Positions 34,953 to 46,215 of a stretch of 64,000 nt of DNA are shown here, one piece after another. Every line of letters starts with the position of its first letter. Positions within the stretch are counted from its first letter, which is position 1. The translations under genes and the position numbers were made by a program. Source of the DNA: TPA_inf: Saccharomyces. Taxonomy: Eukaryota. The stretch spans positions 896,001-960,000 of the forward strand of contig BK006941.2 in the NCBI GenBank assembly GCA_000146045.2. The letters are read 5' to 3'. Below the pieces are notes generated by a model that saw only the letters and a list, made by a program, of their open reading frames with translations, made no database searches and was not told the origin of the DNA.

Positions 34953-35023
34953 TGCGCAAGCCCGGAATCGAACCGGGGGCCCAACGATGGCAACGTTGGA
35001 TTTTACCACTAAACCACTTGCGC
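34953..35023 (-). tRNA. tG(GCC): tRNA-Gly, anticodon GCC, 71 nt with no intron, transcribed by Pol III.
   Basis: The reverse complement reads GCGCAAGTGGTTTAGTGGTAAAATCCAACGTTGCCATCGTTGGGCCCCCGGTTCGATTCCGGGCTTGCGCA. A-box (TGGTTTAGTGG) and B-box (GGTTCGATTCC) promoters are present. The anticodon loop is UUGCCAU. An oligo-T terminator follows on the minus strand (a run of A at 34925-34952 on the plus strand). Confidence 0.92.
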
Positions 35024-41123: not shown

Positions 41124-42992
41124 TTATACATGTACATTCTCGTACGGTGTTATTTCGTAATTATGGGATGTGCCCAGTTGCTTCCTTAAGTCTTCCGTAG
41201 AAGCTTTAAAAGGTAAGATTTCCCCCACACTAGGAGGCTGCAAGATGTCAGTGTCATCCAATAACCCACTAACACGGAAATTTATTGCATTTGACAACGT
41301 TGACGGCGGTTGTGATAAAGAAGATGATGTTGTAGTGGATGAGTTACCAGGGAGATATTGGGCCTTTATTAAATTTCTTAAAGATCCTGCAGGCTTATAG
41401 CGAGGTTTCATAGAAAGTTCTGATGGGTTGGTCATAACAACACTTTGTCTAAGCTGATATGGAAGGGGCGTACAAAATTGCTTTGTCAAAGATGTTGACG
41501 GTATTTTCGTAGGCGAACTGTAAAACATTTCAGGATGATCCATTGGATTCAACGCTGTCCCATTAAGCCTAGCTGTAGGTACATGTTTTAGTGTTTTTGG
41601 AGGTTTAGGCCTTCCTTTGAATGACGTCAAGGAATGCGAAGAGGTGGAATAAATGAATTGGGTAGGCGTGGGCAAATCTCCGATGTTCTCATAATTTTGA
41701 GGATGTTCTAACGGGAGGGGATAATTATAGTAGTAATTGTCATCATTGCTCTGGTTGCAGTGATCTATAAAATATGTAGAATATTGCTGAGCAGAAGTAA
41801 GATTTGACTGACCCGAACCCTCCGAAAGGGCCCGTACGGGAGCCTTTGCAGAGTGAATATGGTCCTTAGCGACCGTGTCAGAATATATTGATGAGGTAAT
41901 TCTCGTTGAAAGACCATTCGGTGGTGGGAATGTAAGAGATAGAGACGATTCGGGAATCACTTTTTCTCTGGTTGCTACTTCTGAATATACTGACGATGCA
42001 ATGTTTTTATTCTCTTGTGGTGCCGGCACTTGCAGATAATCAGTTGCATCTTCATATTCCTCATTGGCGCTGGAACTGGAATCAATTTCTTGGACAGTTG
42101 TACTTCCGAAGTGACTCTGTTCAATTAATGTAGTATCATTTGGATTGTCTTGAGAGCTCATATTTACACTTTTTCTTGTAGCGATGTTTAATTTAGAGTC
42201 ACGCCGTATCGAAGAAGTTACAGAGGATCGTATCGTGCTATTACTTTTCTCAAAATAAATGTTATAAATGCTTCTTATTCTGTCAATATTTTCTTCCTCC
42301 TCTCTCGAACACTGAGGCTCGAGCCCGCTACGACTCGTATAATTCGATTTAAGTCGATTATCGTTGTTATGGCTGGACTTTTCATTTACATCAGGATTTG
42401 ACGTACTATCACATCTTTGATCACAGTCTTGCCCAGTATTTGAGTGTTGTGGTGAAACAATCAGCTCAGAATTCTCTAACGATTCGAAAGAAATCTTATT
42501 CGAAAGGTCAATGTGCTTGGAGGGGACCGATAACTTGCTGTTATTCTGCGAAGCCAGTGAAGCAATATTATAAGCGGAGGGTGCATGCTCATTGATACGC
42601 CTCACATAATCTTTGAAAGATTGTGAGTTTTCGATTGACGGTTGCAAAAAATCGTCATAACCACCATAAATAAACCTCTTTTCTGTGGCATTGCTGTCTG
42701 AGTTTGCAGAATTCATAGAAGAATCCATCTTCGGTAAATAGTATAAATCGCCCTCAAAATTTGGGTCAAAATCCTGCATAGAAGGTTCTTTTTTGCATCT
42801 CCTATATACTACTATTAAAACGACGGATAGTACTATAATAATAGCACCAATGGGAACAGCAACGGCCACTGCAACAGTGACGTTAGATGAATCGGTTCTT
42901 TTCTGAAGAAATGTCAGTGATACGCGAGATTTGTCTGGTATAGCCTCTCTTTTTTGGCAAGAATTTTCTTTATAGCGGTAGTGACTAAACAT
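41124..42992 (-). CDS. TOS2: Ser/Thr/Asn-rich single-TM protein localised to sites of polarised growth, 622 aa (YGR221C).
   Basis: One N-terminal TM helix (VAVAVAVPIGAIIIVLSVVLIVV) is followed by long low-complexity S/T/N-rich sequence. Length and position match TOS2. Confidence 0.75.
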   Translation of the reverse strand: MFSHYRYKENSCQKREAIPDKSRVSLTFLQKRTDSSNVTVAVAVAVPIGAIIIVLSVVLIVVYRRCKKEPSMQDFDPNFEGDLYYLPKMDSSMNSANSDSNATEKRFIYGGYDDFLQPSIENSQSFKDYVRRINEHAPSAYNIASLASQNNSKLSVPSKHIDLSNKISFESLENSELIVSPQHSNTGQDCDQRCDSTSNPDVNEKSSHNNDNRLKSNYTSRSGLEPQCSREEEENIDRIRSIYNIYFEKSNSTIRSSVTSSIRRDSKLNIATRKSVNMSSQDNPNDTTLIEQSHFGSTTVQEIDSSSSANEEYEDATDYLQVPAPQENKNIASSVYSEVATREKVIPESSLSLTFPPPNGLSTRITSSIYSDTVAKDHIHSAKAPVRALSEGSGQSNLTSAQQYSTYFIDHCNQSNDDNYYYNYPLPLEHPQNYENIGDLPTPTQFIYSTSSHSLTSFKGRPKPPKTLKHVPTARLNGTALNPMDHPEMFYSSPTKIPSTSLTKQFCTPLPYQLRQSVVMTNPSELSMKPRYKPAGSLRNLIKAQYLPGNSSTTTSSSLSQPPSTLSNAINFRVSGLLDDTDILQPPSVGEILPFKASTEDLRKQLGTSHNYEITPYENVHV

Positions 42993-43457
42993 GGACGCTT
43001 TATAGCATCTAAAGTAGGGGAAGCACTATTTCTCACTTGCAGTTACTATGAAGTATATTTCGATCGCACAAGTTGCTTTACTATGCTATTGCAGCCTAAG
43101 ATAAAGGCAACAACCGATGAAACAAGAGTAAAGGGTATACTCTTTTATGCAAATGCTCCTTTACGCGACTGGTCATTATTGAACATCGAACACTTTCGAA
43201 TAGTTTAGTCTCAAATGTATCGAACGCGAAACTTTAAAAGCGCATTCTTGTTCTTTTTTCGCGACTTGCTCCTGTGATCGTCTTATTTCTGCTCCATATT
43301 ATCTATTCTTTACTTAAAGCTTCCTAAAAATGCAGTCAGGATAAAAGCAAATGCTTCAATGGAGTTAATATATATACCGAAACAAGAAAATGAGTTCTAT
43401 ATATTTGTTCCATGGACTCATGAATCAAATTTGTAGAAAAATAAAATAGAAAAGATA

Positions 43458-43672
43458 AACGCCCTCCTTACTCATTGAGAAAAAGGGCAGAAAAGTTCCA
43501 AAAAATATGGCAAGCCCACAGTAACGGACAGCTTTACCTGTTTCTATGGAGACAACACCCGGATGGTTCTGGTAAAAGGCAAGAACCATGTTCGTTATAA
43601 GTTCTATAGGCAATAAAAGGCCCACAGTTCTTGATGTTGACCTCCCTCCGCCATTGATCTGTAAAGCTGCTT
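43458..43672 (-). ncRNA. SNR7: U5 spliceosomal snRNA (long form about 214 nt; the short form shares the 5' end).
   Basis: The reverse complement from 43672 reads AAGCAGCTTTACAGATCAATGGCGGAGGGAGGTCAACATCAAGAACTGTGGGCCTTTTATTGCCTATAGAACTTATAACGAACATGGTTCTTGCCTTTTACCAGAACCATCCGGGTGTTGTCTCC...CATATTTTTTGGAACTTTTCTGCCC. It includes the invariant U5 loop 1 (GCCUUUUAC) and the Sm site (AUUUUUUGG). Confidence 0.9.
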
Positions 43673-43922
43673 GCAGGTTTTAAAACAAAAAGAAAGAAAA
43701 GTATTTTAAAATATATAGGAGGAAAGAAACATTTAACAAAAAGTCTTACTATGCGCTTTTTATACTGAGCACTCCGTTTCTACAAAATTTTCAATTTTTT
43801 TTTTCATATTCGTTAATCGTGATGAGAATACTAACACCACGAACTCAAATAGGAAGTTAACAATTTAGGGTAGGAGTGCCAGACTCTACCCATTATCCCT
43901 TTGTCATCGATGTAAAGCAGAT

Positions 43923-44804
43923 ATGAAGGCTTCTAGTAAAGCTATTAAATTAGTACTGGACCATCTGAAGTCCACGGGAAGAGTTCTTGGCTCCGTAGAG
44001 TCAGGAAATTCAGCAACAATAAGTGAGAAAACGGCATCTGTTAATAAGCAGCAGCAGTTGCAGGAAAAGAAACCTTCTGTCCTACAATATAGAAGCTACA
44101 ATCCATATTTAGTTAAGGAGGATTTCCTGTCAATTCTGCCAGAAAATTTGTATAAAAAGAGGGGACAATTTACAAATGAGCTTGACTTTCAGTTGATGAA
44201 AGTCAGGGACCCTAAATACTTCCAGTTCAAGGATCAGTATTACTTGTTTTTTAATGATTATAACTCGCTTACTGAGTATATCAAATTAACAAAACACTCG
44301 CGAATAAACAAGATCAGGGTGAAAATGACGCCATTGGCGCAACCCTTGCCAACCCTGTTAACAAAATTACAAAGATATTCAAAAAATCTATATAACGCAT
44401 TCCGATCATCTGAGCAATATTTTGAGGGACTAAACGAAAAAGTCGATGTTAGTGGAGAGTTCACTACCAATCAGTTACGGAGTATCCTTGATTCGGTGGA
44501 AGAAATAGAAAATAAGTCCGTATTAGTCTGGAATATACCCACTAAATTACGGTCGCACGATATATTGAATTATTTTTGGTTTTACAACATAAGGTCTAGC
44601 TTCAAGATATACTGGGATGATGAAATGAAAAGAAATCTACGATTTATATCTTTCGAAAACTCGCATGACGCCTACCGCTTTAAAAGAAACTATCATGGAT
44701 TATTGGCTAAAGAGCTATTGACCCTGTCAGAAAAGGGAGATGCAGCTGACTATTCGCTCGAAATGGACGATTCCAAAATATTAATTGAACATCTTAGTGA
44801 ATGA
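43923..44804 (+). CDS. PET54: Mitochondrial COX3 translational activator and aI5-beta splicing factor, 293 aa (YGR222W).
   Basis: A 293-aa ORF with an RRM-like central region, and sequence and position match PET54. Confidence 0.8.
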   Translation: MKASSKAIKLVLDHLKSTGRVLGSVESGNSATISEKTASVNKQQQLQEKKPSVLQYRSYNPYLVKEDFLSILPENLYKKRGQFTNELDFQLMKVRDPKYFQFKDQYYLFFNDYNSLTEYIKLTKHSRINKIRVKMTPLAQPLPTLLTKLQRYSKNLYNAFRSSEQYFEGLNEKVDVSGEFTTNQLRSILDSVEEIENKSVLVWNIPTKLRSHDILNYFWFYNIRSSFKIYWDDEMKRNLRFISFENSHDAYRFKRNYHGLLAKELLTLSEKGDAADYSLEMDDSKILIEHLSE

Positions 44805-44868: not shown

Positions 44869-46215
44869 TTAAAGCTCTCTCCATGATTCTCTCACCAACT
44901 CCCATCTGGTGGGCTCACCCGCTGATTTCGTATCTTCGTTCCTCAAGCTTTCATTCAATGAATAATGCGTTTTCGATGAATCTTGTTGTTCCTTCTCCAA
45001 AATAACAAATTTCTCCCATATCCCAGAATTTTGCCACACCAGAACCAACGAATCGTCTTGTTCTCTATTATTAGAGTCTTGACACCAGCCAATTCTACAT
45101 CTGTCTTTATAGAACTCGTTATCGTGAGTTACATCACCACTGTTGTCATTTCTGTGAGCGTCAAAGATTGGGTTCTTTAAGTGAGCATTGCATATCGACC
45201 ACACAGAGTCCAAATACTTGGGCCTCCATAGGCCCTTCGGTATATAATTTTTCAAGGGATGGCTCGAACCATTGGCACGAGAGTGGTCTGGTGTATTCGT
45301 TTCTGTATTGGTTGTTTCAAAAATTTGGAAAATATGCAATGTTTGCTTATTTGACAATACGGCCAACTTACTACCATTGGGGCTGAAACTCATCTCGTAA
45401 ATATCCGCCTTGTCCACCCCTCTTCTAAATTCTTTGATTAAAGTACCGTTATGCGTACTGAAGATTCTTATAAGTGTACCCTGGACGGAACATGTTGCTA
45501 CCATGGTGCCTTGACGGTTCAGTCTAACCAGTTTGATGGGATTTTTATGTGCTTTAATGATGGAAGTGGGCAAAAGCGCTGATTCCTTCGGGTTTTGTGA
45601 ATTATATTTTATTTGTGATAGGTCGGCTACTTGAATTTGGCCTACGCATTTATTCGATGGGAATGCAATGATTTCTAAGATTTTAGACTGTGACTGCGAT
45701 GCTTGCGACTGGAGATGTTTGCTGCTACAAACGACATAGTCCACTGATCCATTGGGAGGGATATCCAAAATAGGACAAATTCTTTGAGGATTGGTTTGAA
45801 ATTGGAAGATCTCTATTGTGTTCTCCAGGACTACCACAATATGAATCCTAGATAAAAACACGTCTTTAATGGAAGACATAAACTTCAAAGTAATCGTTTC
45901 CTTTTGCAAAAGATCATCCCAGATGATCAGTTTATTTAGAGCATGCCTTGGTCGTTTACCACCTCCGACTAGTGCGATGTAATTCGTACGATAAAGCATC
46001 CTGGTATAGCCAATCCCAGTGCCCCTGGATTGGTTGGTCGCAGACTCTTTAAATGTTTTCGATAGCTTACTAGTCAATGGATCTGTATTGAAAATACGAA
46101 ATCCATTCTCTAACGCCACGCTGAAACACGAATCATCTTGGTTAAACGAAACGCTCAAAAATTTTGGTTTCCTCCTGTTGTTGACTGCCTCCCTTATAGG
46201 TCGACGAACATCCAT
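44869..46215 (-). CDS. HSV2: PROPPIN (WD40 beta-propeller phosphoinositide-binding protein), 448 aa (YGR223C).
   Basis: A WD40 propeller with the FRRG phosphoinositide-binding motif (LIKEFRRGVD). Length matches HSV2. Confidence 0.85.
   Translation of the reverse strand: MDVRRPIREAVNNRRKPKFLSVSFNQDDSCFSVALENGFRIFNTDPLTSKLSKTFKESATNQSRGTGIGYTRMLYRTNYIALVGGGKRPRHALNKLIIWDDLLQKETITLKFMSSIKDVFLSRIHIVVVLENTIEIFQFQTNPQRICPILDIPPNGSVDYVVCSSKHLQSQASQSQSKILEIIAFPSNKCVGQIQVADLSQIKYNSQNPKESALLPTSIIKAHKNPIKLVRLNRQGTMVATCSVQGTLIRIFSTHNGTLIKEFRRGVDKADIYEMSFSPNGSKLAVLSNKQTLHIFQIFETTNTETNTPDHSRANGSSHPLKNYIPKGLWRPKYLDSVWSICNAHLKNPIFDAHRNDNSGDVTHDNEFYKDRCRIGWCQDSNNREQDDSLVLVWQNSGIWEKFVILEKEQQDSSKTHYSLNESLRNEDTKSAGEPTRWELVRESWREL

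Follow-up and report, generated by a model that had tools for sequence, protein, structure and literature searches.

[quoted passage not shown] Two isoforms, U5L of 214 nt and U5S of 179 nt, have been described, both of them present in Sm-purified snRNPs (PMC3159458). In the published numbering of the yeast RNA, C79 and G80 belong to the 5' strand of internal loop 1, and U121/C122 to stem 2 (PMC4065371), with C95 and U97-U99 placed in loop 1 by the cryo-EM numbering quoted in PMC8283771. The precursor is also a known processing substrate of Rnt1p, the yeast RNase III (PMC5027489, PMC5513554, PMC13183374), which cleaves its target hairpins 14 nt from the tetraloop on the 5' side and 16 nt from it on the 3' side (PMC5027489; PMC13183374). 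Where a pre-snRNA trailer has been cleaved by Rnt1, Rat1 can enter and transcription can be terminated (PMC13183374, PMC5513554). For SNR7-L, listed as YNCG0044C on the minus strand of chrVII, in-vivo Rnt1 sites have been mapped by PARE to chrVII 939430-939432, the strongest being 939431-939432, and to a second cluster at 939395-939398, within which 939397-939398 is also cleaved in vitro (PMC13183374 supplement).

The Rfam U5 family, RF00020, is eukaryote-wide, with a metazoan-like consensus of 117 positions. It has in common with yeast U5 a CGAA...CCG internal loop, an 8-bp stem and an 11-nt loop containing GCCUUUUAC, as well as a U-rich Sm site that has a hairpin on its 3' side. The yeast RNA is, however, approximately 100 nt longer, and neither its 5' extension of 54 nt nor its variable stem-loop is covered by the model. 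The outer stems and Sm site of the model are forced onto non-homologous yeast sequence, and the 3' stem-loop of yeast U5, found only in the long isoform, lies beyond the extent of the match.

The locus considered here lies in a 64-kb stretch of DNA that was analysed as a whole and is hereafter called the window. Its minus strand from 43672 to 43459 is, with near certainty, SNR7, the single-copy U5 spliceosomal snRNA gene of S. cerevisiae, situated in the TOS2/PET54 interval of chromosome VII. An earlier note had proposed a U5 snRNA gene on the minus strand between TOS2 and PET54, and the Rfam match, published numbering, flanking proteins, synteny, covariation and PARE sites all agree with that proposal. 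The assignment to SNR7 was made because an above-threshold RF00020 match coincides with published U5 position markers, exact S288C neighbours, syntenic and covarying orthologs, and the Rnt1 sites reported for SNR7-L. In a protein collection, the flanking ORFs were matched by S288C Tos2p, Pet54p and Hsv2p, identical over their full length, and Pfam assignments were consistent for two of these three neighbours (SKG6 family and PROPPIN). The gene is thus bordered by TOS2 (YGR221C) on one side and PET54 (YGR222W) on the other, as expected of the chromosome VII locus. The neighbouring genes and the principal parts of the RNA are as follows.

41124..42992, minus strand: Tos2p ORF, exact match to S288C.
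43923..44804, plus strand: Pet54p ORF, exact match to S288C.
44869..46215, minus strand: Hsv2p ORF, exact match to S288C.
43459..43672, minus strand: mature U5L, 214 nt, with +1 being the A at 43672 (from the exact 5' sequence and the length given in PMC3159458).
43494..43672, minus strand: U5S, 179 nt, ending 4 nt past the Sm site and lacking the 3' stem-loop (length from PMC3159458, coordinate computed).
43593..43594, minus strand: C79 and G80 in the 5' strand of internal loop 1, within the Prp8/Snu114 crosslink region (positions from PMC4065371; invariant across species).
43571..43581, minus strand: loop 1, the 11-nt exon-aligning loop UGCCUUUUACC, RNA 92-102 (from the model alignment and conservation).
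43498..43506, minus strand: predicted Sm-protein binding site AUUUUUUGG, RNA 167-175 (exact match).

Each of the motifs named in the earlier note was recovered on the minus strand: the 32-nt 5' sequence AAGCAGCTTTACAGATCAATGGCGGAGGGAGG is exact at 43672..43641, the loop 1 sequence GCCTTTTAC is present at 43580..43572 as its single occurrence on both strands of the 64 kb, and the Sm site ATTTTTTGG is exact at 43506..43498, although this last 9-mer occurs four times in the window and carries little weight outside its context. With 43672 taken as +1, the positions C79, G80, C95, U96-99, U121 and C122 of published yeast U5 are all recovered. The span proposed for the gene, 43458..43672, measures 215 nt and requires a small correction, as the published U5L length of 214 nt would put the 3' end at 43459. 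Relative to S. cerevisiae SNR7, the 5' end, loop 1, Sm site, position markers, 214/179-nt geometry, neighbouring genes and Rnt1 sites all agree, and the only difference found was this 3' coordinate, a 1-nt ambiguity of annotation.

The features that define a U5 RNA were also found at the locus. The 11-nt loop contains the 9-mer GCCUUUUAC at 43580..43572, which is invariant in all seven species or loci compared, and it is closed by an 8-bp stem. Below stem 1c lies an internal loop (yeast IL1) with CGAA on its 5' side and CCG on its 3' side, which fits the consensus of the model. Judged by its sequence, the putative Sm site is A/U-rich, conforms to RAU3-6GR and is located near the 3' end; it does not vary among the five Saccharomyces species, and the same 12-mer, AUUUUUUGGAAC, occurs in a more distant yeast. 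A second, loop-1-like sequence, GCCUUUUAU (8/9 match; RNA 52-60, 43613..43621, minus strand), was noted in the loop of the variable stem-loop and rejected as a functional duplicate of loop 1; the resemblance was judged a coincidence because C53 is replaced by A, U or G in sister species.

A comparison with the Rfam U5 model, which the earlier note had suggested as a check, returned a match to RF00020. Its 47.0 bits exceed the gathering score of 40, and its E-value is 1.6e-4 for the whole 64-kb window and 2.3e-6 in a sensitive scan of 43000..43930 alone. This sensitive scan gave no other Rfam family at the locus with E <= 1.

43494..43618, minus strand: extent of the RF00020 match, RNA 55-179, 47.0 bits.

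Both the excess over threshold, a mere 7 bits, and the whole-window E-value could be read in favour of a pseudogene resembling U5, or of a match to the model by chance, as opposed to a functional gene; the agreement of the published position markers described above already argues against such a reading. Rfam matches within the 64 kb comprised U5 and one tRNA, which bears out the claim that this is the sole spliceosomal snRNA in the window. The tRNA is a tRNA-Gly with anticodon GCC at 34953..35023 on the minus strand (Rfam 60.3 bits), and it was also found by ARAGORN.

Outside the core made up of IL1, stem 1c and loop 1, the alignment to RF00020 was forced, with non-canonical pairs flagged. The Sm site of the model was aligned to UUACUGUGG at 43524..43516, and AUUUUUUGG, the real site, fell within the hairpin loop at the 3' end of the model. 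The cross-species alignment revealed that UUACUGUGG varies between species and that AUUUUUUGG is invariant in Saccharomyces, hence the Rfam placement was considered an artefact and the Sm site of the earlier note the correct one. The generic Rfam model thus catches yeast U5 narrowly and by its core only, and its coordinates are unfit as gene boundaries.

Orthologous loci were retrieved through one Pet54p homology search and then by synteny with PET54. The search yielded S. paradoxus, S. mikatae, S. kudriavzevii and S. arboricola, a variant with 91% identity and a distant yeast with 37% identity, and at each ortholog locus an RF00020 match of 41-53 bits adjoined PET54 and lay on the other strand. 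In the alignment, conservation between species sets in precisely at C(-1)A(+1). The five Saccharomyces species and the variant assembly show no change in the core, which runs from UAUAACGAAC by way of loop 1 to CCGGGUG, and the distant yeast differs there solely at A76U and A106G. This retention of synteny and of an invariant core, out to a yeast in which Pet54 is only 37% identical, argues against a pseudogene or a chance match.

Two of these loci have features of their own. The variant (L024:196..3873, from GCA_030036235.2, labelled S. cerevisiae) encodes a Pet54 of 290 aa with 91% identity and has a Tos2 call of 551 aa, whilst its U5 region differs from the window by one base; this pattern could reflect local divergence, introgression or an assembly problem. 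The distant yeast (L022:5270..5601, minus strand, Logan SRR28502119) has the gene order CRM1, an L3-family (MRPL9-like) gene, U5, PET54 and a PROPPIN gene, without an SKG6/TOS2 gene. Its U5 appears to have approximately 100 nt more separating core and Sm site, with AUUUUUUGGAAC located approximately 100 nt downstream of the position assigned by MAFFT. A metagenome search with the pattern ACGAAN{9,11}TGCCTTTTACCN{8,10}TCCG gave seven loci, which were rejected as chance matches, being without a U5 match, stem or Sm site; the pattern called for 8-10 nt from loop 1 to TCCG, where the U5 of the window has 7, so that a yeast-type U5 would not have been matched and the scan is uninformative.

The minimum free energy (MFE) fold of the 214-nt RNA had an energy of -67.9 kcal/mol, a modest departure from shuffled sequences (z = -2.5). 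The helices to which the following text refers are given below.

43661..43670, minus strand: 5' arm GCAGCUUUAC of the 10-bp closing helix, RNA 3-12, pairing with RNA 136-145 at 43537..43528 (MFE fold).
43599..43632, minus strand: yeast-specific variable stem-loop, RNA 41-74 (MFE fold).
43563..43589, minus strand: stem 1c and loop 1, with AUGGUUCU (RNA 84-91) pairing with AGAACCAU (RNA 103-110) (MFE fold).
43460..43489, minus strand: 3'-terminal stem-loop of U5L only, RNA 184-213 (MFE and centroid folds).

Further stems of the MFE fold were formed by RNA 28-32 with 121-125 and by RNA 34-40 with 114-120, and the fold also shows the C79-G80 pairs of internal loop 1. Covariation was counted for an explicit structure of 72 pairs across seven sequences, in an alignment (MAFFT) in which the distant sequence is misaligned 3' of the core. 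Standard pairs occupied 93.2% of cells, relative to 39-46% when the partners were slid, a contrast that is inflated because the tested structure was itself taken from the S. cerevisiae fold. Nine pairs were changed on both sides, as opposed to 2.8 +/- 1.3 in shuffles, none of 500 of which reached nine. These compensatory pairs were found in the internal stems, the variable stem-loop, the U5L 3' stem-loop and the Rnt1 hairpin of the 3' trailer, and helices that carry compensatory changes again argue against a pseudogene or a chance match.

Individual helices differed in how well they were kept. Stem 1c (helix 5) was paired in 100% of cells, with seven of its eight pairs invariant and the eighth changed from U-A to U-G, and the helix of the variable stem-loop (helix 3) was 93% paired with two pairs changed on both sides. 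The 3'-terminal stem-loop (helix 6) was 91% paired, with double changes of C-G to U-A in two species and six one-sided changes. The closing helix (helix 1) was the weakest at 86% paired, with position 10 mismatched in three species and its mismatches uncompensated. The MFE fold also contained a hairpin at RNA 146-175 that hides the Sm site and resembles the 3' hairpin of the Rfam alignment. A Sm site needs to be single-stranded for binding of the Sm ring, and for this reason, and because the 5' arm of the hairpin varies without compensation, the Sm-sequestering hairpin was rejected.

Variation within the species was assessed in 10 S. cerevisiae assemblies with identical Pet54p, representing nine haplotypes. 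The U5 gene together with the Rnt1 hairpin (278 bp) contained one variable column, relative to 13 in 652 bp of flanking intergenic DNA, or about 2 per 100 bp, and adjacent coding segments were similar to the latter. Approximately 5.5 variable columns would be expected in 278 bp, giving a Poisson P(<=1) of about 0.03 by our own arithmetic. The locus is under purifying selection, and lowered diversity of this kind is another point against a pseudogene. The lone variant, U166A at window position 43507, lies just 5' of the Sm site in GCA_030035915.1 (L016) and changes UAUUUUUUGG to AAUUUUUUGG.

SNR7 and PET54 are divergent genes that have a 250-bp intergenic region, 43673..43922, in common, and two conserved elements were identified within it.

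43757..43764, minus strand: putative TATA box TATAAAAA, starting 92 nt upstream of +1 (from conservation).
43795..43804, minus strand: A10 tract in the divergent SNR7-PET54 intergenic region (A-rich tract conserved in the five Saccharomyces species).

The TATA box lies within GTATAAAA(A/G)GCGCA, which is conserved in the five Saccharomyces species, and a TATATA at -45 is not conserved. The A10 tract is probably a nucleosome-excluding element. In the five Saccharomyces species, 248-258 bp separate the U5 +1 from the start codon of PET54. The spacing is 399 bp in the distant yeast, where the two genes are still adjacent even with Pet54 being 37% identical; the head-to-head pairing of U5 and PET54 is unusually stable. 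Selection to keep the divergent promoter region, co-regulating U5 with PET54, an activator of mitochondrial translation and splicing, would be one way to account for this, but we regard it as improbable next to mere inherited synteny. In S. mikatae, a gene call of 45 aa (L019:2787..2924, plus strand) is present in the SNR7-PET54 promoter region; it has no Pfam match and is clear of U5, and is probably another spurious short ORF.

Downstream of the mature RNA, the 3' trailer contains a hairpin with the characteristics of an Rnt1p signal.

43395..43438, minus strand: Rnt1p (yeast RNase III) processing hairpin in the 3' trailer (from folds, conservation and PARE sites).

The hairpin is capped by an AGUC tetraloop at 43418..43415, in agreement with the AGNN (NGNN) preference of Rnt1, and all five Saccharomyces species retain an AGNN loop, either AGUC or AGUA. 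Its two helices (7 and 8) were 89% and 92% paired, each with one change on both sides, along with seven one-sided changes. The 14/16 rule predicts 3' products that start at 43432 (-14) and 43398 (+16). With window positions taken as chrVII coordinates minus 896000, the published PARE clusters become 43430-43432 and 43395-43398 and fall on the predicted nucleotides; this offset is one that we infer, and it is supported by the position of both clusters, one on each arm of the sole AGNN hairpin of the trailer, and by 896000 being a round multiple of half the window length. The AGUC hairpin downstream of SNR7 is an Rnt1 processing signal. When compared with the Rnt1p signals of the Sm-class snRNA genes (U1, U2, U4 and U5), it has the same AGNN cap, bulged stem of about 16 bp, downstream location and cuts at -14/+16, and for U5 no difference was seen, since this is the known U5 signal. 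Conservation of both the TATA box and the Rnt1 hairpin, together with the published in-vivo Rnt1 cleavage of the SNR7-L transcript, completes the evidence against a U5-like pseudogene or chance match, whose probability we consider negligible; the locus is accordingly taken as the functional SNR7 gene in what follows.

An open reading frame overlaps the RNA gene on the same strand.

43425..43625, minus strand: 66-aa ORF with a GTG start, consisting of the snRNA body and 3' trailer read as protein (from a mechanical ORF list).

The earlier note had dismissed this ORF as spurious, and rightly so, in that it is frameshifted in every other species and has neither a Pfam match, a match in the protein collection nor a gene call. 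That note had further stated that an ORF-based description would miss U5 and report the 66-aa ORF instead. The first part holds, and the second is true of a permissive lister of short ORFs that accepts GTG starts, but not of real gene callers, as none of the 15 yeast assemblies examined had a gene call overlapping U5. The view that the 66-aa ORF, or the 54-aa version obtained from the first in-frame ATG at 43589, is a real small protein to which the U5-like features are secondary can draw on the frame being open in S. cerevisiae and on a comparable open frame of 67 codons in S. kudriavzevii. It has to contend, however, with a GTG start, with the absence of any Pfam match for the ORF and of both versions from approximately 15 billion predicted proteins, and with the lack of a call in those 15 assemblies. 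All non-cerevisiae orthologs, moreover, have a 1-nt insertion just after the Sm site that shifts the frame and turns the C-terminal third into an unrelated peptide, and in-frame stops are present in S. arboricola and the distant yeast. The first ~43 codons of the ORF are conserved, but at all three codon positions, as expected for an RNA and not for a protein, so this conservation mirrors that of the RNA. Sm-class snRNAs are nuclear and are not expected to be translated. A coding function is hardly credible on this evidence; the small-protein interpretation is effectively refuted, and the ORF is effectively without coding function.

For SNR7 as the gene at this locus, the following course of expression may be proposed. 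RNA polymerase II would start at the A at 43672, approximately 92 nt downstream of the conserved TATA box, and the primary transcript would pass the mature end, allowing the 3' trailer to fold into the AGUC-capped hairpin at 43438..43395. As the published PARE mapping shows, Rnt1p then cleaves this hairpin on either side of the tetraloop, at 14 nt upstream and 16 nt downstream. Trimming by 3' exonucleases would presumably proceed from the Rnt1 cut, which leaves a 3' end at 43433, 26 nt beyond that of U5L. U5L (214 nt) would result where trimming is halted by the terminal stem-loop, and U5S (179 nt) where it is halted by the Sm ring on AUUUUUUGG. Chanfreau et al. in 1997 reportedly found that alternative Rnt1 cleavage picks between the U5L and U5S pathways, a feature particular to U5, with U5L being strictly dependent on Rnt1. 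Within the U5 snRNP, internal loop 1 and stem 1 would carry Prp8, Snu114 and Brr2, and loop 1, UGCCUUUUACC, would touch the 5' exon alone ahead of the first step and both exons once it is over, so that they are aligned for ligation (PMC4065371).

SNR7 is already known as a textbook gene and no new biology is implied by its identification here, the value of which is that of a quality check, in that an essential non-coding gene, invisible to an ORF-only description, was recognised. The combination of synteny, covariation and frameshift analysis cleanly told this RNA gene apart from the accidental ORF that overlaps it. The functional unit also reaches beyond the mature RNA, extending approximately 65 nt past its 3' end and taking in the RNase III hairpin.
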